This document shows positions 1,864 through 34,051 of a stretch of 34,051 nt of DNA, piece by piece. The notes beneath the pieces were generated by a model, which saw only the letters and a program-made list of their open reading frames with translations, made no database searches and was not told the origin of the DNA. Source of the stretch: an uncultured Methanosarcinales archaeon (GTDB lineage: Archaea > Nanobdellota > Nanobdellia > Woesearchaeales > UBA10216); NCBI GenBank assembly GCA_964374085.1, contig CAYJXD010000001.1, positions 15,378 through 49,428 on the forward strand. The letters run 5' to 3'. Position 1 is the stretch's first letter. Each line of letters begins with the position of its first letter. The translations under genes were made by a program, and so were the position numbers.

Positions 1864-3159
1864 TTACTTGATGTCTTTCTTGACCAAGTCAATGCACATT
1901 CCAGCAGCAACAGTTGTGCCCGAGTCACGGACAGCAAACCTTGCCATCTGAGGAATGTCTTTCTGCCTCTCTATCACGAGAGGGCTTGTTGGCTTCACTG
2001 TGACAACAGCTATGTCGCCGTTCTTCAGGAAGTCTGGATTCTCCTGCAAAACCTCTCCAGTTGCAGGGTTTATCTTCTTTGTAATTGCCGTTATCTGGCA
2101 AGCAACCTGGGCTGTGTGAATGTGGAACACTGGAGTGTATCCAACTGTTACAACAGTCGGGTGGTTCAGGACTGCAATCTGCGCAGTGAATTCAGTCGCG
2201 ATTGTTGGCGGATTGTCAACATGCCCGATTACATCTCCCCTTGTTATGTCCTGCTTTGAGATGCCCCTCACGTTGAAGCCAATGTTGTCGCCTGGCTCTG
2301 CTTCAGGCATCTGCTCATGGTGCATCTCGATTGTCTTGATTTCGCCATGCACTCCTTTTCCTTCCCTTCCAGGAACTATGATGACCTTGTCACCGACTTT
2401 CATTGTTCCTGTCTCAACTCTTCCAACAGGAACTACTCCGATTCCGGTGATGTTGTAAACATCCTGTATTGGCAGCCTCAATGGAAGCTGTGTTGGCTTG
2501 TCTGGCACTTTCAGGCTGTTGATTGCTTCGAGCAGTGTAGGCCCTTTATACCAAGGCATGTGCTCTGACTTGTTCTTTACATTTTCGCCAAGGTATGATG
2601 CCATCGCTACAAATTGCATCTCATCCGGATTAAATCTTACTGATTTCAGCACAGCGCTGACTTCAGCCTTGACCTCTTCAAACCTTTTCTGGTCATACTG
2701 GGCCATGTCCATCTTGTTGACAGCGATTATCAGCTGGTTGACTCCAAGAGTCCTTGCAAGGAAAATGTGCTCCTTTGTTTGGGCCTGAACCCCGTCTCCC
2801 TTGTTTGCAGAGACAACCAGAACTCCAGCGTCAGCCTGTGACGCGCCTGTTATCATGTTCTTGATAAAGTCACGGTGGCCAGGAGCGTCAATTATTGTGA
2901 AGTAATACTTTTCAGTCTCCAGCCTCTTGTGGGCCAAGTCAATTGTAAGCCCTCTTTCCTGCTCTTCCTTGAGGTTGTCCATGACGAATGCAAACTCAAA
3001 TCCGCCTTTTCCCAATTCCTGGGCCCTGTCCTTGAGCTTCCTCATAGCCTGCTCGTCTACTGCGCCTGTATCATAAAGCAGCCTTCCGACTGTAGTAGAC
3101 TTGCCGTGGTCTACGTGACCTATGAATACGACATTCAAGTGTGGTTTTTCCCTAGCCAT
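1864..3159 (-). CDS. tuf: translation elongation factor EF-1alpha
   Basis: [17 protein letters not shown] and NKMD GTPase motifs; full-length archaeal EF-1alpha pattern. GGAGG (complement of 3171-3175) lies upstream of the ATG, so this is one of the few genes here with an SD and a leader. Confidence 0.98.
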
Positions 3160-9178: not shown

Positions 9179-9724
9179 ATGGTGAGGCAGGCTGTTATGA
9201 AAAACCCAGAAAACCCCCAGGAGTTGGAGAACGGTTTTGAGGAACTTAAGCAGCAGGCTGAAACCTACAAAGACCTCCTTCAAAGGCTGCAGGCTGACTT
9301 TGAGAACTACAAGAAGCGCTCTGAGAAGGAAAATGAGGAGCTCAGGCAGTATGCAATTGCCAAGTTCATTTCAAGGATGCTTCCTGTGATTGACAGCTTT
9401 GAAATGGCACTGAAAAGCGCCAATAAAAGTGAAGGCAATGTGCAGTTTGTTGAGGGAGTAAAGATGATATACGCGCAAATGCATTCACTCCTGGAATCAG
9501 AAGGGCTCAGGAAAATCAACAGTGCTGGCGAAAAATTCAATCCGCACTTGCACGAAGTGCTGATGGCAGAGGATGTTGAAAGTGGCAAAGACAATACGGA
9601 CGATATCGTGCTTGAGGAATTCCAGAAGGGATACATGCTAAAGGATGCGGTGCTGAGGCACAGCAAGGTAAAGGTTGGATCAAGGCCAAAAGCAGAAAAG
9701 CCTGTTGAGGGTAAAAATGATTAA
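9179..9724 (+). CDS. grpE: nucleotide exchange factor GrpE
   Basis: LQRLQADFENYKKRSEKE, the coiled N-terminus and the C-terminal GYMLKDAVLRHSKV are typical of GrpE. Confidence 0.93.
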   Translation: MVRQAVMKNPENPQELENGFEELKQQAETYKDLLQRLQADFENYKKRSEKENEELRQYAIAKFISRMLPVIDSFEMALKSANKSEGNVQFVEGVKMIYAQMHSLLESEGLRKINSAGEKFNPHLHEVLMAEDVESGKDNTDDIVLEEFQKGYMLKDAVLRHSKVKVGSRPKAEKPVEGKND

Positions 9725-10031
9725 TGCTCATGAAAAAAGGCTGGAAGAACTGGCATCTCTGCCATGGAAATATTATGAAGCGATGAATGGCACTTTTCCA
9801 TCAATTACATTAAGGCAGGCATTGGCAGACTATATAGGCGCAAGAATGACAGAAAGCGATTTTCCACGGGTGTGCTTTTCGTGCACGGATATTACGCCGG
9901 GAACTTTTTTGGAAATAGTGGTGGAAGACGCAACAATTAAAGGAAGCCCAAAAGCAGTTTATGGGTTCCACAGGGAATGCTATGAAAAGCTTGCAATTGG
10001 AAAAAAAATGAACAATCAAGGTGATGAATAA
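9717..10031 (+). CDS. small hypothetical protein with CxxC...HxxC (possible zinc-binding), inserted between grpE and dnaK
   Basis: ATG 9717 overlaps the grpE stop. It ends 1 nt before the dnaK ATG. CFSC and HREC are about 35 aa apart. No family recognised. Confidence 0.55.
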
Positions 10032-10032
10032 A

Positions 10033-11874
10033 ATGGCAAAGATAATTGGGATTGACTTAGGAACCAGTAACTCTGCAGCTTCTTTTCTCGAGGCAGGGAA
10101 GCCGAAAATAATACCTTCAGCAGAAGGAGCAACGCTTCATGGGAAGGCATTCCCTTCTGTTGTTGCGTTCACAAAGGACGGGCAGATTCTTGTTGGAGAG
10201 CCGGCAAGAAGGCAGGCTGTGAGCAATCCAGAAGGGACTGTCATGGCTGCCAAGAGGAGGATGGGCTCGAGTCATAAATACAAGGTGCTTGGGAAAGAAT
10301 ACACCCCCCAGCAGATTTCTGCTTTTATCCTCCAGAAAATCAAGAAGGACGCAGAAGAGTTTCTTGGGGAAAAAATCAGCAAGGCAGTAATAACAGTGCC
10401 TGCATATTTTGACGACAACCAGAGGCAGGCAACAAAGGATGCAGGGGCGATTGCAGGCCTTGAAGTTGTACGCCTTGTAAATGAGCCGACAGCAGCTGCT
10501 TTTGCATACGGCATTGAAAAGGTTGGGAAGGTCCAGACAGTTATGGTTTTCGACCTTGGCGGCGGAACGCTTGATGTAACAATAATGGAGATGGGAGAGG
10601 AAGGCGTGTTTGAAGTCAAGTCAACAAGCGGAGACACGCAACTGGGCGGAACAGACATGGACCGCGCGCTGACTGATTTCCTGCTCAAGGAATTCAAATT
10701 GAATGAGGGCATTGACTTGGGCAAGGACAAGGTTGCGATGCAGCGCCTTTCAGAGGCTGCTGAGAAGGCAAAGATTGAGCTCTCAACAACATTGGAGACA
10801 GACATAAACCTGCCTTTCATAACCGCAAACAACGAGGGGCCAAAGCATTTCACTTACAGGCTGACAAGGGCAAAGTTTGAAAGCCTTATTTCGCCGATAG
10901 TGGACAGGTGCTCGAGCCCGATTCAGCAGGCAATTGCTGACGCAAAGCTCAAGCCCGCTGACATTGCAAAAGTGATTCTGGTCGGAGGCCCAACAAGGAT
11001 TCCCCTTGTCCAGAGGTTTGTGGAAAGCCATACAGGCAAGAAGCTTGAGAGGGGAATTGACCCGATGGAATGTGTTGCAATGGGTGCAGCCATACAGGGC
11101 GGGATACTTGCAGGAGACGTGAAGGACGTCCTCCTTTTGGATGTAACCCCTCTTTCATTGGGAATTGAAACCCTTGGGGGAATATTCACAAAGCTTATTG
11201 ACAGGAACACAACAATCCCGACAAAGAAAAGCCAGGTGTTCTCAACAGCGGCTGACAACCAGCCTGCTGTGAGCATCAAGGTGTTACAGGGCGAAAGGCC
11301 AATGGCTGCAGATAATAAGATGCTTGGCCAGTTTGATTTAGTGGGAATCCCTCCAGCACAGAGAGGCATACCCCAGATTGAAGTGTCCTTTGACATAGAT
11401 GCAAATGGGATTGTGCATGTAACTGCAAAAGACCTTGGCACGCAAAAGCAGCAGTCCATCAGGATAACTGCAGACCACAAGCTTTCAGAGGCTGAGATTG
11501 GGAAGATGAGAAAGGATGCTGAAGAATATGCCGAGGCAGACCAGAAAAGGAAGGAAGAGGCAGAGCTTGTGAATGAAGCTGATACAATGGTTTACTCCAC
11601 AGAAAAGCTTTCAGAGGAAATGAAAGGCAAGGTTTCCGAGGAAAAGCTTTCCAGCATAAGCGCAAAGGCAGATGAGCTGAGGCAAATGCTGAATAATCCG
11701 GACAAGGACCTCTCATCTGTCCGCTCATTGAAAGACGAGCTGGGCAGGCTGGTTCAGGAGGCAAGCGCAGAGCTCTACCAGAAAGGCTCCCAAGCCCAGC
11801 AATCTGAGGAAAAAACCGAAACAGATAAAAAAGAAAAGGTAGTTGATGCTGAATACAGTGAAAAAGAGAATTAA
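10033..11874 (+). CDS. dnaK: molecular chaperone DnaK (Hsp70)
   Basis: [31 protein letters not shown] and the substrate-binding and lid regions. I preferred ATG 10033 (AAGGTGA upstream, no overlap) over the listed GTG 10021. Confidence 0.98.
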
Positions 11875-12288
11875 ATGGTAAGCAGGCTCAAAGTTGCGGT
11901 AACCACGCTGCTTTTGCTGCTGGTTTTCGGGACAGTCATTTACCACATGGCAGAGGGGTGGACTTGGATTGACTCGTTTTATTTCACAAGCGTCACATTA
12001 AGCACGATTGGGTATGGCGACATCCATTCGACAACTCCAGGAACAAGGCTGTTCACAGCGTTTTTTGCACTGAGCGGGGTCGGGATAGCCCTTTACACCC
12101 TGTCGCTTATCGGCGGCGACTATGTTGAGCGAAGGGAAAAAGCGCTGATGGAAAGGATGAACCAGGAGTCAGACAGAAAGTCAGAGTCAATTGCATCAAA
12201 AATATTGAAAGCTGACCAGCACTTTATGGCTGCTGACAAGCACGTGATGACACTCCTGGAAAAAATTGACGCGCGCATAAAGAAGTAG
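11875..12288 (+). CDS. two-TM potassium channel (pore-loop TIGYGD), short cytoplasmic tail
   Basis: TM1, then pore helix WIDSFYFTSVTLSTIGYGD, then TM2. The ATG directly abuts the dnaK TAA (TAAATG). Confidence 0.85.
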   Translation: MVSRLKVAVTTLLLLLVFGTVIYHMAEGWTWIDSFYFTSVTLSTIGYGDIHSTTPGTRLFTAFFALSGVGIALYTLSLIGGDYVERREKALMERMNQESDRKSESIASKILKADQHFMAADKHVMTLLEKIDARIKK

Positions 12289-12321
12289 GCTTATAAATTA
12301 AGCCAGAGTCACTTTCTCAAG

Positions 12322-13395
12322 ATGGCAAAGGACTACTACAAGATACTGGGCGTTGAAAAGAGCTCCTCAAAGGAGGAGATAAAGGCTGCTTACAGGAAGC
12401 TGGCCAAGAAATACCATCCAGACCTGAACAAGAGCCCAGACGCATCAGATAAGTTCAAGGAGATAAACGAGGCTGCCGCAATCCTCGGAGATGAAAAAAA
12501 GCGCGAGTCGTATGACCATTATGGAACCACTGCCGAGGGCTTCAGCGCTGGTGAAGGAGGCTTTGGGTTTACAGACTTTGGAAATGCAGGTGATTTTGGT
12601 TTTGACTTTGGCGAGATTTTTGACAGGTTCTTCGGGGGCGGATTCACTAACGAAACTAAAGGCGCTGACTTGAGGCATGACATCGAGATAACGCTGGAAG
12701 AAGTCAATGATGGGGCAAAGAAAACCATTGTCATTCCGAGGACTGAAAGCTGCGAAAAGTGCAATGGCACAGGAGCTGAATCATCCGGCGATGTCAAAAA
12801 ATGCCCTGACTGCAACGGCACAGGAGCCTTGAGGCGAATCCAGAGAATTGCGTTTGGAACATTTACAACTACAACAGTCTGCCCAAAATGCAGCGGCAAG
12901 GGAAGTGTAATATCAAATCCCTGCAGGGAATGCAGGGGCTGTGGAAATAATGTGAGGAACAGGCACATTGAAGTTTCGATTCCAGCTGGAGTTGATGACA
13001 GCTCAAGGCTGAGGCTGAGAGGACAGGGCAATTCAGGCCGGGTTCATGGAGACCTTTATGTTTTCATTCACGTTCTTGCCCACAAGCTGTTTGAAAGGGA
13101 TGGGAATGACCTGAACATTGAGATTCCAATTTCCTTCACACAGGCAGCCCTTGGCGCAGAGATTGATGTTCCGACACTAAAGGGAAAAGCAGCATTGAAG
13201 ATTCCACACGGCACCCAGCCAGGAACTGTCTTTGCAATGCGCGGAAAAGGATTGCCTGATGTCAGGACAGGGCATAGAGGAGACCAGAATGTTGCGGTCA
13301 AGGTCATCATTCCCGAGAGGCTTTCCAAAAAGCAAAAGCAATTGCTTGAGCAGCTTGCAAAGGAAGAGGGAAAGGGCTTTTTGAATTTGTTCTGA
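12322..13395 (+). CDS. dnaJ: co-chaperone DnaJ (type I Hsp40)
   Basis: J-domain with KKYHPD, a G/F-rich linker, four CxxCxGxG repeats and the C-terminal domains. It has its own TATA ttataaat (12291-12298) about 27 nt upstream. Confidence 0.97.
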
Positions 13396-15268: not shown

Positions 15269-15775
15269 ATGAAGAAAAAAAAGCCATCCCCGGCAAAGGC
15301 TGCTGGAGTCCAAGGCAGGGCTGCCAAAGGCACCCAATCAAAGTATGCTGGCTTCTGGATAAGGCTTGCTGCATCACTTATTGATGGCCTAATACTTATG
15401 GCCGCAATATTTATTTATGCAATGCTTGCCATCATTCCTGTGATAATGTTCGGTGACCCCTTTAAGTCAGGCAGTTTATTGCTTGCCCTCTTTTTTATCC
15501 TTGTTATATTTCTTGGTTTCTTCCTCTTAATAATGTATGAAATCTGGTTCACCAAGAAGAAAGGAGCAACGCCAGGTAAGATGGCTGTCGGCATAAAGGT
15601 CGTGAAGTTAGACAGCTCAAGGATTGGATGGGGAGATTCAATAGTCAGGTATCTTGTCAAGTCCATCGGAAGCAGCTGGATTGTTCTTTACCTTGGCGTC
15701 CTGTGGATTATCTGGGACAAGAGGAAGCAGGGCTGGCATGACAAGGCAGCTGGGACTGTTGTAGTCTACAAGTAG
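15269..15775 (+). CDS. RDD-family membrane protein
   Basis: YAGFWIRLAASLIDGLIL...PGKMAVGIKVV...WHDKAAGTVVV. I used ATG 15269, because the listed upstream start overlaps ogg. Confidence 0.8.
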   Translation: MKKKKPSPAKAAGVQGRAAKGTQSKYAGFWIRLAASLIDGLILMAAIFIYAMLAIIPVIMFGDPFKSGSLLLALFFILVIFLGFFLLIMYEIWFTKKKGATPGKMAVGIKVVKLDSSRIGWGDSIVRYLVKSIGSSWIVLYLGVLWIIWDKRKQGWHDKAAGTVVVYK

Positions 15776-18529: not shown

Positions 18530-20227
18530 ATGGAACAGCAGCTCACTGGCAGCTTCTTCCCGGAAATCATATCTGCAATAAAGGCAGGAATGAGCGGCGA
18601 AGAGCTTTCGAGGCTTAAAATAAAGCTGTGCAGCAAGCACGGTGTCAAAAAGATACCTACTGACATAGAAATCCTTCTCCATGCTTCAGAGGAAGAGCTC
18701 AAGGAGATTAAGCTGGTGACAAAGCCCACAAGGACCATAAGCGGAGTTGCTCCTGTCGCATTGATGACTGCGCCGATGAGCTGCCCGCATGGGAAATGCA
18801 CTTTCTGCCCTGGAGGGCCGAATTCTGTTTTCGGCGATGTGCCGCAAAGCTACACCGGAAAAGAGCCTTCGACAATGAGGGGAATAAGGGCTTCCTTTGA
18901 CCCTTACCTCATGGTGTTCAGCAGGCTGGAGCAATACACTGTTACAAACCACAACTTTGACAAGGTTGAAGTCATAGTCCAGGGCGGGACATTCCCCTCG
19001 GCACACGAGTCTTACCAGGAAAATTTCATGATGCATTCGTTCAAGGCGATGAATGACTTCTCAGAAATGTTTTTCCCTAATGGAAGCCTTGACTTTGTGA
19101 AATTCAAGGATTTCTTTGAGCTTCCAGGCGACATAAGGAACAATGAAAGGGCAGAAAGGCTAAGAAAAAAGATTTTGCAGCTGAAAGACAAGGGCGCAAC
19201 AACACTCGAGCGTGAGCAGCAGCGGAATGAAACAGCAAAATCCAGGTGTGTTGCCCTCTGCATTGAGACAAAGCCTGACTTCAGCAAGGAGGAGCACATT
19301 GATGAAATGCTGAAGCTTGGCACTACAAGGGTTGAGCTTGGAGTCCAGACTCTTCATGATGAGATACTCACTAAGGTAAACAGGGGGCATCTGATGGCAG
19401 ACACTTATGAGGCTGTGCAGCTCCTCAAGGATTCTTTCCTTAAAGTCGGATTCCACCTGATGCCAGGGCTTCCCGGCTCAAGCAGGGAAATGGACATTGA
19501 TGTTTTCAAACAGACTTTTGAAAACCCAGACCTTAAGCCAGATAACCTTAAGATTTACCCGTGCCTTGTAATGCCTGGCACAGAGCTTTACGACGACTGG
19601 AAGAAAGGGCTGTTCACGCCGATAACAACAGCGCAGGCTGCAGACATAATTGTTGAGGGCAAGAGGTTCATTCCAGAGTATTGCCGCGTCATGCGAGTTC
19701 AGAGGGACATTCCAACTTATGTCACTTCAGCAGGGGTTGACCGCACCAATTTAAGGCAGTATGTTGAGCAGCTGAAATCAGAGAAAAACGTCATATGCAG
19801 ATGCATCAGGTGCAGGGAGCCGATGAAAAAGGAAGTTGACATTGGAAACGTGAAAATAAAAAGAACGAGCTATGATTCAAGCGGCGGAACAGAAATTTTC
19901 ATTTCAGCAGAGGACCTGAAGAATGACCTTCTGCTCGGCTTTTGCAGGCTCAGGATTCCATTCAGGCCGTTCAGGAAGGAAATAACTTTGGATTCAGCCG
20001 GAGTCAGGGAATTGCACGTGTTCGGTCCAGCCGCAGGGCTTAAGATGCCTGGCACTGTCCAGCACAGGGGCTTTGGAAAAGCGCTTTTAGCCGAGGCTGA
20101 ATCAATTGCAAAAAATGAATTCAAAAAAAAGAAGCTGATTGTCATCTCAGGGATTGGAGCAAGGGAATATTACCTTAAGCTTGGCTATGAGAGGAATGGG
20201 GCTTATATGTCCAAGCTATTGCAGTAG
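18530..20227 (+). CDS. elp3: Elp3-type radical SAM / GNAT tRNA U34 modification enzyme
   Basis: CPHGKCTFCPGG cluster, a radical-SAM core, and a C-terminal acetyltransferase region (HRGFGKALLAEAE). Confidence 0.93.
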   Translation: MEQQLTGSFFPEIISAIKAGMSGEELSRLKIKLCSKHGVKKIPTDIEILLHASEEELKEIKLVTKPTRTISGVAPVALMTAPMSCPHGKCTFCPGGPNSVFGDVPQSYTGKEPSTMRGIRASFDPYLMVFSRLEQYTVTNHNFDKVEVIVQGGTFPSAHESYQENFMMHSFKAMNDFSEMFFPNGSLDFVKFKDFFELPGDIRNNERAERLRKKILQLKDKGATTLEREQQRNETAKSRCVALCIETKPDFSKEEHIDEMLKLGTTRVELGVQTLHDEILTKVNRGHLMADTYEAVQLLKDSFLKVGFHLMPGLPGSSREMDIDVFKQTFENPDLKPDNLKIYPCLVMPGTELYDDWKKGLFTPITTAQAADIIVEGKRFIPEYCRVMRVQRDIPTYVTSAGVDRTNLRQYVEQLKSEKNVICRCIRCREPMKKEVDIGNVKIKRTSYDSSGGTEIFISAEDLKNDLLLGFCRLRIPFRPFRKEITLDSAGVRELHVFGPAAGLKMPGTVQHRGFGKALLAEAESIAKNEFKKKKLIVISGIGAREYYLKLGYERNGAYMSKLLQ

Positions 20228-20557
20228 CTTATCAGGGCTCCTGTTCCTGACTATGGCATCAGGCAGCCTGTTGAGCCAATACATCAGCCTGCCGCCGCCA
20301 TAAATCGGGATTGACCTTCCTAGCTTTGTTGGATAGTCATACAGAATGAATTCTGCCAGCTCCCTTGTCTTTGCAACTCCTGTAATGGCTGCCTCAATCG
20401 GGTATGCGGCGTTTCCAAAGGTTGGAATTGGAGATACAATCAGGGCAATCAGCTGCTCTGTCTTGAGGAACTCAACTCCTCCATTCCATGCGCCTTTCAA
20501 TCCATGCTCACTGATTTCATTTCCAGCATAGCTCACTTTTTGTGCAAGCCCATCCAT
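20216..20557 (-). CDS. hypothetical protein
   Basis: ORF whose ATG is 28 nt from a TATA element. It overlaps the elp3 3' end by 12 nt. No family recognised. Confidence 0.35.
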   Translation of the reverse strand: MDGLAQKVSYAGNEISEHGLKGAWNGGVEFLKTEQLIALIVSPIPTFGNAAYPIEAAITGVAKTRELAEFILYDYPTKLGRSIPIYGGGRLMYWLNRLPDAIVRNRSPDKLLQ

Positions 20558-20598
20558 ATGGAGATTAGAAAAAAGGGGCGATATAAAAATATTTAGAA

Positions 20599-20973
20599 TT
20601 ATTCCTTCTTCTGCTTGAAGCTCCTTATCAGGTCTATGAAGTATTTGCCTTCGTCTATCTTGTAGATTAATGGCTCGTTCTTGAACAATTGCACAATGTC
20701 AAGCTCGTATTTGCCTGGCTTTTCAACTCTTATTGTCTCCAAGTCAAGGACAACCGGCTCGTCAAGCTGCTCCTCATCGCCCACTATTTCACGCACATCT
20801 TCTTCTATCTGCTCTTTTTCTGTCTGGGAAAGGTTCAATGCCATGGATTTCATCTTCTCAAGCTTCTCCTTCTTGATGTAGAAGAACAGCTTTCCGCCGC
20901 AGGCGCAGCCCTTGATTATTGCGTCTGCATTCTCCTCATAGAAAGTGTTGCACCTTACGCATTGGTGTGGCAT
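20599..20973 (-). CDS. Zn-ribbon protein (archaeal DUF2072-like)
   Basis: MPHQCVRCNTFYE...GCACGGKLFFY, followed by an acidic C-terminal region. It is the last gene of the GTPase operon. Confidence 0.75.
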   Translation of the reverse strand: MPHQCVRCNTFYEENADAIIKGCACGGKLFFYIKKEKLEKMKSMALNLSQTEKEQIEEDVREIVGDEEQLDEPVVLDLETIRVEKPGKYELDIVQLFKNEPLIYKIDEGKYFIDLIRSFKQKKE

Positions 20974-20975
20974 TC

Positions 20976-21374
20976 TTACCTTTTCCTTTTCCTTCCGTTT
21001 AGCCTCTTTGCTTCCACTGTCAATAACTGTATCTTGTCAGGGTCTTTCTTTATTTCCTTTATGACAGTTGCAGGCCCTATTATTGTTATGCCGTGCCTTC
21101 CCCCGGAAAGCAGGTTTAGCAGGCTTCTCTGCACTTTCTTTACAAGCCCCTGCTCTTTCTTGTCTGAAGTGACAACAGACAGCTCGATTCCCTTGAACTT
21201 GCCGTTGATTGCTGCCATTGTTGTCTTTATCAGGTCTGCTTCCTCTTCCTTTGTGAGCCTTCCTTCAAGAAGTATTATTTTCTCGTCCTTCACCGCATCA
21301 ACAAGCTTCTTTATCCTCCTTTCAGGGCTGAGATGCGATATTTCATTGAACGGTATGAACTGGAGCGTAAGCAT
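20976..21374 (-). CDS. conserved archaeal protein (DUF2073-like)
   Basis: LQFIPFNEISHLSPERRIKKLVDAVKDEKIILLEGRLTKEEEADLIKTTM pattern. There are 2-nt gaps to both neighbours. Confidence 0.7.
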   Translation of the reverse strand: MLTLQFIPFNEISHLSPERRIKKLVDAVKDEKIILLEGRLTKEEEADLIKTTMAAINGKFKGIELSVVTSDKKEQGLVKKVQRSLLNLLSGGRHGITIIGPATVIKEIKKDPDKIQLLTVEAKRLNGRKRKR

Positions 21375-32628: not shown

Positions 32629-32650
32629 ATTGCAGTTCCTCCGATTCCTC

Positions 32651-32899
32651 ATGAATATCATTGTTGCAATCGGGAGGCTTATTTTCAGGAGAGGGACTGG
32701 ATTGTTCAAGCTCCTCTTTGCGATTGACGACCTAATCAGGCTTTTTGCCATTACCCTGATAATGTTCCTTTCCCTCACTATCCTTGAGGTTTCAGGCCTT
32801 TTTTTCACTGCGGCAATGATTCTTGCGATTGTCATTGATGTTCACGACGTCTTTGATGACATCAAGGAAGGCAAGCCCCTTGACCTGGGCTTCAACTAG
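32651..32899 (+). CDS. small membrane protein
   Basis: Two hydrophobic segments. The ATG is about 26 nt from the TATA. It ends 4 nt before the next ATG. Confidence 0.45.
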   Translation: MNIIVAIGRLIFRRGTGLFKLLFAIDDLIRLFAITLIMFLSLTILEVSGLFFTAAMILAIVIDVHDVFDDIKEGKPLDLGFN

Positions 32900-32903
32900 G
32901 AAA

Positions 32904-33497
32904 ATGTTCAGGAAATTTTCTCTCTACGAAATCAGGATTCTGAAATCTGCCTTCCTCAATGCAAGGCCTTTCAGGCATGTCCTGGTCACAAATTTCCTTG
33001 CATCTCCTGATTCAGCGCTGAAAGCGCTGGCAAGGCAAAAGTTCTTCAGGAAAGACTCTGACCTTTTCAGCTTCAGCCAGACCCAGAATTTGCTGCACAG
33101 CACTCCAAAAGAGCTAAGGCAGCTCGTTGCAATGTTCAGCAGCCCTGAATTCTCTGGATTTGTTTCGGCAATTACCGGAAAAAAATTAAGGTCTGGCTCA
33201 TTGGACTTGTCAGGCGCGGTTTACAATGATTCAGATTACCTGCTATGCCACGATGATGACCTTGAAGGAAGGAAAATTGCATTCATACTTTACCTTTCCC
33301 CTTCCTTCAAGCCCGGAGATGGGGGAGAGCTTGTCTTTTACTCTTCAAGGAAAAACCATCCCCATCAGAAAGCAGCCTCATATCCTCCTGTAAAGAACTC
33401 GCTCATGGTTTTCGAGGTTTCAAAAAAATCATGGCACGAGATAGAGGAAGTCAAGGCAAAAAAGAAGAGGTATACTATTGGGGGCTGGCTCCATTGA
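32904..33497 (+). CDS. 2OG-Fe(II) oxygenase, N-terminal catalytic domain of an OGFOD1/Tpa1/Ofd1-like prolyl hydroxylase
   Basis: PFRHVLVTNFL, DLFSFSQTQNL, LLCHDDDLEGRKIAFILYLSP (HxD), GGELVFY, NSLMVFEVSKKSWHEIEEV (distal His) and RYTIGGWLH. Confidence 0.85.
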   Translation: MFRKFSLYEIRILKSAFLNARPFRHVLVTNFLASPDSALKALARQKFFRKDSDLFSFSQTQNLLHSTPKELRQLVAMFSSPEFSGFVSAITGKKLRSGSLDLSGAVYNDSDYLLCHDDDLEGRKIAFILYLSPSFKPGDGGELVFYSSRKNHPHQKAASYPPVKNSLMVFEVSKKSWHEIEEVKAKKKRYTIGGWLH

Positions 33498-34051
33498 TTA
33501 ATCCATTTGTTAACCCTGTTTACCTGAAGCCAAAGATACTGAAAAAGGTCAGCGAGGCTTACCTTTCAAGCATTCCTGTCGGAGTCCAGCTGAAGGATTT
33601 TTTCCTTCCCCAAGAGTACAGGGAAATGCTTTCTCTATGCAATAATCCACGCTTCAAAAAATCAGAGGTCAGGGATTTGTACTCCTTCTTCGAGGACCCA
33701 AAATCAAACGCTTCGCCTTTCTTCAAGTCAGCTGAATTCATCAGGTTTGCTTCCAAAGTATCTGGAATCAAGCTGTCGAAAAGCGTTTGCAGCCTCAAGG
33801 TTTTCACTCCAGGATGCTATACCCTTGCAAGCTTCCGGCCTAAAGGAAAGGTGGAGTTTTTGCTTGACTTAACTCCTTCATGGAGGCATGAATGGGGAGG
33901 GAGCAGCAATTACATCGCTTCCGATGGTGACAGGCTTGTCCTTCCTCCTGTTCCTAATAGCCTTATCCTTGCAAGCATGGAAAACATAGAAGGCTACATC
34001 AAGTATGTCAACCACAGGGCAAAAGGGAATGGCAGGATAATGGTGCAGGGC
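33494..34051 (+). CDS. OGFOD1/Tpa1 C-terminal (Ofd1_CTDD-like) domain protein, 3'-truncated by the window edge
   Basis: A frame not in the ORF track is open from upstream of 33431 to the window end. It encodes INPFVNPVYLKP...LKDFFLP...SGIKL...FTPGCYTLAS...EFLLDLTPSWRHEWGGSSNYIASDGDRLVLPPVPNSLILA...KYVNHRA. Candidate starts are TTG 33494, which overlaps the upstream TGA, or ATG 33431. Confidence 0.7.
   Translation, partial: MINPFVNPVYLKPKILKKVSEAYLSSIPVGVQLKDFFLPQEYREMLSLCNNPRFKKSEVRDLYSFFEDPKSNASPFFKSAEFIRFASKVSGIKLSKSVCSLKVFTPGCYTLASFRPKGKVEFLLDLTPSWRHEWGGSSNYIASDGDRLVLPPVPNSLILASMENIEGYIKYVNHRAKGNGRIMVQG

Follow-up and report, generated by a model that had tools for sequence, protein, structure and literature searches.

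A candidate two-gene, split form of the OGFOD1/Tpa1/Ofd1 ribosomal prolyl hydroxylase in archaea

The right-hand end of a 34,051-nucleotide stretch of archaeal DNA (positions 15,378 to 49,428 of contig CAYJXD010000001.1, assembly GCA_964374085.1; the whole stretch is referred to here as the window) carries two overlapping open reading frames (ORFs) that encode, one each, the two domains of the eukaryotic OGFOD1/Tpa1/Ofd1 proteins. OGFOD1, Tpa1 of Saccharomyces cerevisiae, Ofd1 of Schizosaccharomyces pombe and Sudestada1 of Drosophila (structures 4nhx, 3kt4 and 6e0t) are prolyl 3-hydroxylases and 3,4-dihydroxylases of ribosomal protein uS12/RPS23. They have domains of the same types in the same order, but in one chain, whereas the archaeal version consists of two polypeptides. 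When 60 distinct archaeal loci were compared (the window, L002 and L011-L068), separate ORFs for the two domains were found in 60/60. We take the locus to be a conserved two-gene operon for a split, heteromeric ribosomal prolyl hydroxylase of the OGFOD1/Tpa1/Ofd1 type, at a probability of about 60%. The best reading of the pair is that it forms a heterodimeric 2-oxoglutarate (2OG) oxygenase, and what it hydroxylates is probably the proline in the decoding loop of uS12.

The two genes and their junction

The elements of the locus are the following.

Gene 1 (ORF1), 32904..33497, + strand: predicted catalytic subunit of 197 amino acids (aa), starting at ATG 32904 and stopping at TGA 33495-33497, with the C-terminus GGWLH
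Gene 2 (ORF2), 33494..34051, + strand: predicted non-catalytic subunit, starting at TTG 33494; the window ends after 186 of its 189 codons
Gene junction, 33480..33500, + strand: GGGGGCTGGCTCCATTGATTA

ORF1 ends with the last core strand of a double-stranded beta-helix 2OG/Fe(II) oxygenase fold. A profile search matches it to the Pfam family 2OG-FeII_Oxy_4 (E 6e-27). When the two ORFs are joined and compared with the sequences of the Protein Data Bank (PDB), human OGFOD1 (4nhx) is retrieved at E 4.9e-35, each of its domains being matched separately; the N-domain match (E 5e-28) covers residues 18-213 of the joined query and thus reaches 16 residues into ORF2. Tpa1 is matched at E 1.3e-15, and PolD (E 4.7e-9) and a prolyl 4-hydroxylase (E 0.005) more weakly. 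The AlphaFold2 (AF2) model of ORF1 has a predicted local distance difference test score (pLDDT) of 94.0, and its best Foldseek match is again OGFOD1 (4nhy), with a template-modelling (TM) score of 0.90, a root-mean-square deviation of 1.8 Å and 32% identity; Tpa1 comes next, then PolD (TM 0.74) and a bacterial prolyl 4-hydroxylase (P4H; ~0.69). An earlier note, made from the letters of the window alone, had assigned this 197-aa ORF to the N-terminal domain of OGFOD1/Tpa1 on the strength of a list of motif blocks. The assignment holds, and the significance of the Pfam matches to both ORFs makes the blocks genuine, far above chance.

The residues on which catalysis would depend are in place. H116, D118 and H178 of ORF1 align to the OGFOD1 metal triad H155/D157/H218, Y130 and R189 to its 2OG ligands Y169 and R230, and L113 (in DYLLCHDD) to Leu152. 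Alignment A1, of 15 family members with 38-58% identity to ORF1, shows no variation at H116, D118, H178, R189 or L113 and at least 90% conservation of Y130. The leucine is of particular interest: Leu152 of OGFOD1 (Leu156 of Tpa1) marks 3-hydroxylases, 4-hydroxylases having a tyrosine there (PMC4396695). The third position of the RxS motif, in contrast to the eukaryotic group, is Thr or Ala and not Ser. Judged by its sequence, gene 1 appears fit for catalysis, like its eukaryotic counterpart. Gene callers place its start at 32856 (giving the 213-aa database copy P0001), but the N-termini of its relatives, M-[RM]-x-F-S-x-x-E-I, fit ATG 32904, which is preferred for that reason.

ORF2 is in the -1 frame relative to ORF1 and stays open through base 34051. 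Its last three codons, which lie past the window, come from a Logan assembly of sequencing run ERR3478686 (L001) that agrees with the window at every one of 1370 nt; nucleotides 813..1382 of L001 give the full ORF, 189 aa long and ending in IMVQGFMS. (This assembly may share reads with the source genome and is not a fully independent check.) The Pfam family Ofd1_CTDD (PF10637) matches ORF2 at E 2.6e-11, with 43.9 bits against a cutoff of 27, and the AF2 model (pLDDT 92.6) has as its best Foldseek match 6e0t, the C-terminal domain of fission-yeast Ofd1 on its own (E 6.5e-13). TM scores are 0.79-0.83 against Tpa1 and OGFOD1 (OGFOD1 TMq 0.83) and 0.57-0.72 against single-domain hydroxylases. That the frame left open at the window end specifies the second domain of the same proteins, as had also been proposed, is thereby borne out. 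A Tyr stands in place of the distal His (KYVN) and the RxS arginine is absent. Most ORF2 relatives, like human OGFOD1, retain a vestigial YTL[LI]HD at the lost metal motif; in the ORF2 of the window a 6-residue deletion, evident from the ORF2 alignment (A2), removes the vestigial HD as well. Gene 2 looks not to be catalytically competent, which is also how its counterpart stands in the eukaryotic enzymes.

At the junction the TTG of gene 2 (33494-33496) and the TGA of gene 1 (33495-33497) share the sequence caTTGAtt, in a 4-nt overlap. The earlier note had seen this overlap and had pointed to ATG 33431, which is indeed in the frame of gene 2, as an alternative start. The overlap stands, but TTG 33494 is the better start because, read as Met, it gives MINP, the consensus N-terminus of the ORF2 family (most ORF2 relatives begin at an ATG of their own, giving M-I-N). 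Nine nt upstream of the TTG, the two glycine codons form a run of G that might serve as a Shine-Dalgarno-like element. The same CAT-TGA/TTG arrangement is found in L013, L018, L024, L031, L043 and L047; other relatives have ATGA or TAATG junctions, overlaps of -8, -11 or -13, or short gaps. ORF1 ends at about the end of the OGFOD1 N-domain (~residue 238) and ORF2 starts at about the start of the C-domain (WINPTYL, ~residue 269), and the gene boundary therefore stands where the eukaryotic proteins have their linker.

The split in other archaea

In nearly all of the 60 loci at most a few residues separate the stop of gene 1 from the GW motif. What surrounds that stop is not constant: relative to gene 1, ORF2 is in the +1 frame in 30 loci, the -1 frame in 27 and the same frame in 3, and the stop codon is TAA in 33, TGA in 22 and TAG in 5. 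The two ORFs either overlap by 1-17 nt or lie 1-43 nt apart, with longer spacers (393-772 nt) in L020 (3567-3964) and L022 (3567-3966), of ~400 nt each, and in L059 (3555-4327), of 772 nt. In the L059 spacer the opposite strand has a candidate ORF of 247 aa, which is without a Pfam match. Both ORFs keep the residues conserved in their families over their full length.

In a search of 5.8 billion proteins, leaving aside P0001 (the copy of ORF1 itself), the 14 nearest homologues are 210-247 aa long and 35-58% identical to ORF1, and 13/14 end no more than 3 residues from the GW motif (the other, P0010, has a 26-residue tail). Single chains with both domains (548-626 aa) appear in that search only among the distant matches, at 31-38% identity. 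The gene neighbourhoods of three relatives each have a separate Ofd1_CTDD gene directly downstream, and one relative bears the IMG label 'prolyl 3-hydroxylase /prolyl 3,4-dihydroxylase', an automatic annotation. Word-indexed searches for homologues of gene 2 returned only 2 proteins with ORF2 alone and 11 with the ORF2 alignment; an exhaustive HMMER search with ORF2 went far wider, to 397 clusters at 50% identity. All but 6 of the best 150 clusters consist of stand-alone proteins, 116-217 aa long (144 clusters). The 6 fused proteins among the 150 have eukaryote-like features, and one of them adjoins SUMO-like and nucleoplasmin-FKBP genes.

When one genome was scanned for each prokaryotic species, 58 loci emerged, all archaeal, with the proviso that the two peptide patterns used for it were taken from the archaeal family, so that divergent bacterial or fused prokaryotic members could escape. 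The labels of these genomes are mostly Woesearchaeota, Pacearchaeota and Nanoarchaeota; Heimdallarchaeota (2), Kariarchaeota (1), Parvarchaeum (1) and several, doubtful, Methanosarcinales are rarer. No fused archaeal form was found in the protein searches, among the loci of the genome scan or in the best 150 ORF2 clusters.

These comparisons bear directly on two other accounts of the overlap. One fused protein might be made from both ORFs by programmed -1 frameshifting or by read-through of the stop codon; the ORFs do overlap, and ribosomes that slipped into the -1 frame at the stop would join the domains. However, there is no slippery heptamer at the junction, and the relatives would need a +1 shift, a -1 shift or no shift at all, over gaps of 1-43 nt and in two cases of ~400 nt, and in one case past a candidate gene on the opposite strand. 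No single mechanism could be conserved over such junctions, and most ORF2 relatives have their own ATG; recoding is accordingly very improbable. Still less credence can be given to a frameshifted pseudogene or 1-nt assembly error, both of which the earlier note had listed beside a true two-subunit enzyme: a 1-nt indel in a single-chain gene would indeed leave ORF2 in the -1 frame right after the ORF1 stop, and the confirming Logan assembly may come from the same reads, but the same split, at the same domain boundary, is common to all 60 related archaeal loci, which come from many samples and assemblers independent of one another, with differing junction geometry, and with both genes conserved end to end and no fused archaeal relative. 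Because the split recurs in every related locus examined and its junctions are varied, assembly error, recent pseudogene and a single conserved recoding mechanism are taken to be excluded together, and it is the two-subunit explanation that the comparison upholds.

Known relatives and the probable substrate

The eukaryotic OGFOD1 group shares with gene 1 the metal triad, the Tyr/Arg pair that binds 2OG and the 3-hydroxylase Leu; the counterpart of gene 2 is its metal-free C-terminal domain. The archaeal pair differs from it in lacking the ~30-residue linker (OGFOD1 239-269) and the acidic/low-complexity insert of the C-domain, in its smaller combined size (~386 aa, against 542-644 aa) and in having R-x-T/A for RxS in gene 1. 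Of the features that define the subfamily, the catalytic double-stranded beta-helix, the 3-hydroxylase Leu and the non-catalytic Ofd1_CTDD domain are all present, but the two domains are not in one linked polypeptide and the distribution is not confined to eukaryotes; we class the locus as a split archaeal variant and not as a standard member. Horita et al. (2015) state that the subfamily is confined to eukaryotes and that duplication of a single-domain enzyme gave rise to it (PMC4396695). Ofd1 is not mentioned in the survey of peptide-modifying dioxygenases by Iyer et al. (2010), and the searchable literature yielded no paper on archaeal members of the OGFOD1/Tpa1/Ofd1 family, in agreement with the earlier note, whose author knew of none that had been characterised.

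Other hydroxylases are more distant. PPHD of Pseudomonas putida (4iw3, 4j25), which acts on EF-Tu, belongs to the same superfamily, has a prokaryotic host and has a translation-related protein as its substrate. In contrast to the archaeal pair, it shows weak similarity (E 0.24, TM ~0.69), has no partner second domain and has the 4-hydroxylase Tyr where gene 1 has Leu (PMC4396695); a second-domain gene always accompanies gene 1, and the archaeal enzyme is not of the PPHD type. PolD and PasI (9blq, 9ei6) are the next-best matches of gene 1 (E 4.7e-9, TM 0.74-0.78), but they are single-domain, small-molecule enzymes of bacterial nucleoside antibiotic clusters, and no biosynthetic cluster of that kind surrounds the pair in the window. 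YcfD/RoxA and MINA53/NO66 provide a precedent for hydroxylation of ribosomal proteins in prokaryotes and eukaryotes (PMC4396695). They are JmjC homodimers with a winged helix, however, whose targets are an Arg of uL16 and His residues of uL2 and uL15, and they have no family-level homology to the pair.

The scheme that we favour runs as follows. Gene 1 would supply the catalytic 2OG/Fe(II) domain, with intact metal triad, 2OG residues and 3-hydroxylase-type leucine. Gene 2, translated from the TTG that overlaps the gene 1 stop, probably by coupled reinitiation, would supply the second, metal-free beta-helix domain. The two proteins are expected to associate non-covalently through their minor sheets, with a cleft between them, in the manner of the domains of the eukaryotic single chain. 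In Tpa1 the domains bury ~1170 Å2 and frame a cleft that runs from the active site (PMC2847220), an interface whose size, by analogy, is compatible with a non-covalent dimer. The complex would then use O2 and 2OG to hydroxylate the proline in the KQPNSA loop of uS12, at the decoding centre; the candidate archaeal target peptide is VLEKRQIEAKQPNSAMRKAC.

The window itself, searched over its 34,051 nt, contains no uS12 gene. In L061, L065, L067 and L068, genes for an Fe/Mn superoxide dismutase, gene 1 and gene 2 follow one another and converge on a uS12-uS7 operon ~1 kb off, on the other strand. The arrangement is represented by:

L061:2357-5547: superoxide dismutase - gene 1 - gene 2 / uS12-uS7, in a Woesearchaeota/Nanoarchaeia sub-clade; L059 is similar

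The uS12 of these four loci carries EAKQPNSAMRK. The hydroxylated mammalian peptide is QPNSAIRK (the human target being Pro62), and the sole mismatch is Met for Ile. Fission-yeast Ofd1 binds the N-terminal 23 residues of uS12, and the alignment of the uS12 of these loci with eukaryotic uS12 begins at residue 3-4, thereby covering that segment too. The predicted substrate context is present in carrier genomes, but proximity to the uS12 gene is a weak guide to function. In eukaryotes a helper, Nro1/Ett1, promotes uS12 hydroxylation.

Several observations weigh against this scheme. The uS12 gene is near the pair in one sub-clade only, and that may be plain synteny; across the family loci no functional neighbour of the pair is conserved, a RadA-like gene and others being shared only at the level of lineages. 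Among solved structures, the relatives that come next after the OGFOD1 group have other substrates: nucleoside antibiotic intermediates for PolD and PasI, and EF-Tu for the Pseudomonas P4H. Many DPANN archaea are described as anaerobes, while enzymes of this class need O2. The pair could, then, be a genuine two-subunit 2OG oxygenase directed at something else: aEF1A, another ribosomal or translation protein, or a small molecule. We consider this rather unlikely. ORF1 is far closer to OGFOD1 (5e-28, TM 0.90) than to PolD (5e-9, 0.74) or P4H (0.24, 0.69), its 3-hydroxylase Leu is invariant, and the carrier genomes have both the uS12 target loop and the N-terminal docking segment. Furthermore, the distinctive second domain is known, among 2OG oxygenases, only in uS12 hydroxylases (PMC4396695).

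With regard to oxygen, defence genes lie beside the pair in several genomes: a peroxiredoxin gene (L059, upstream), Fe/Mn superoxide dismutase genes (~5 loci) and a nickel superoxide dismutase gene (L008). These neighbours fit an oxygen-exposed lifestyle. In L008 (2764-3529; Woesearchaeota, GCA_023269295.1) the nickel enzyme is encoded directly downstream of the pair together with an S24/S26-family peptidase, which is possibly its maturation protease.

Host, surroundings and origin

The window is archaeal, as its genes for aEF1A, Elp3, OapB/OapC, TruD, a YGR210-type GTPase and SepF show; there is also a short TIM. Scans of it for tRNAs and Rfam families came up empty. The closest relatives of the pair come from genomes labelled Woesearchaeota, which suggests that the host is a DPANN archaeon. 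The copies from five Methanosarcinales-labelled relatives, L056 (OZ246410.1), L011, L040, L048 and L054, nest among DPANN sequences, and one genome so labelled is a complete chromosome of 0.77 Mb; the Methanosarcinales labels of those relatives' genomes look wrong.

Immediately upstream of the pair there is a further ORF:

Upstream hydrophobic ORF, 32630..32899, + strand: 89 aa, ending 4 nt before the ATG of gene 1

It is without a match in a Pfam search and may be co-transcribed with gene 1, but it is not conserved beside the pair in other genomes and for that reason probably stands outside the system. The extension that the gene callers give to gene 1 (32856-32903) runs into this ORF, and homology does not support it.

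Elsewhere in the window, aEF1A (1864-3159, - strand) lies near the left end unaccompanied by uS12 or uS7, and a chaperone cluster of bacterial type (GrpE - DnaK - a K+ channel-like ORF - DnaJ) occupies 9179-13395. Adjacent OapC and OapB genes (20599-21374, - strand) suggest that a replication origin is nearby; ORB-like repeats were not found in 20100-20700, and the local change of skew follows gene orientation.

How the two-gene and one-chain forms are related in time is a separate matter from function. In neighbour-joining trees of each domain the fused eukaryote-type sequences stand apart from the archaeal ones, with weak bootstrap values of 63 and 57. The Heimdall- and Kari-labelled copies, together with L052, form in both trees a clade of their own among the DPANN copies and not beside the eukaryotes, and by mean BLAST scores to 12 fused eukaryote-type proteins the Asgard-labelled copies are no closer than the DPANN ones. 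These data fit either direction, ancestral split followed by fusion or transfer followed by fission, and calling the domains eukaryote-type does not imply that they were acquired from eukaryotes. We lean slightly to an ancestral split because the split is uniform over divergent archaeal copies and the linker and inserts are absent.

In its full form that proposal is tentative. The two-gene archaeal form would be ancestral to OGFOD1, with duplication in archaea and fusion around eukaryogenesis; hydroxylation of uS12 would predate eukaryotes and would still operate, as an O2-linked tuning of translation, in DPANN and some Heimdall-type Asgard archaea. A second possibility, also to be held with reserve, concerns only the origin of the genes: that archaea acquired a eukaryotic single-chain gene horizontally and that it was later split. 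In its favour, the genes have a scattered distribution: most are from DPANN lineages, in which gene transfer is well known, and four belong to the Asgard-labelled clade. The fused eukaryote-type sequences form a clade that is not nested within the archaeal ones, and the Asgard-labelled copies are no nearer to eukaryotes than the DPANN copies are. Against this, the archaeal genes are without the ~30-residue linker and the acidic/low-complexity inserts of the eukaryotic proteins, and a single fission that spread over such divergent copies (gene 1 down to 34% identity) and left no fused survivor is less parsimonious than one fusion in the eukaryotic stem. Fusion is, moreover, generally commoner than fission. 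Tree support, at bootstrap values of 57-63, is weak either way.

The archaeal form displays what the eukaryotic chain has joined: a duplication, with loss of catalysis in the second copy, without fusion. Its separable subunits are a natural system for probing what the non-catalytic domain does. The uS12 assignment predicts an O2-dependent modification of the decoding centre in archaea with very small genomes, and it would add a candidate to the eukaryote-type features of translation that have archaeal counterparts. Should the prediction of the substrate fail, the pair would still represent an uncharacterised family of heteromeric 2OG oxygenases, comprising hundreds of sequence clusters.

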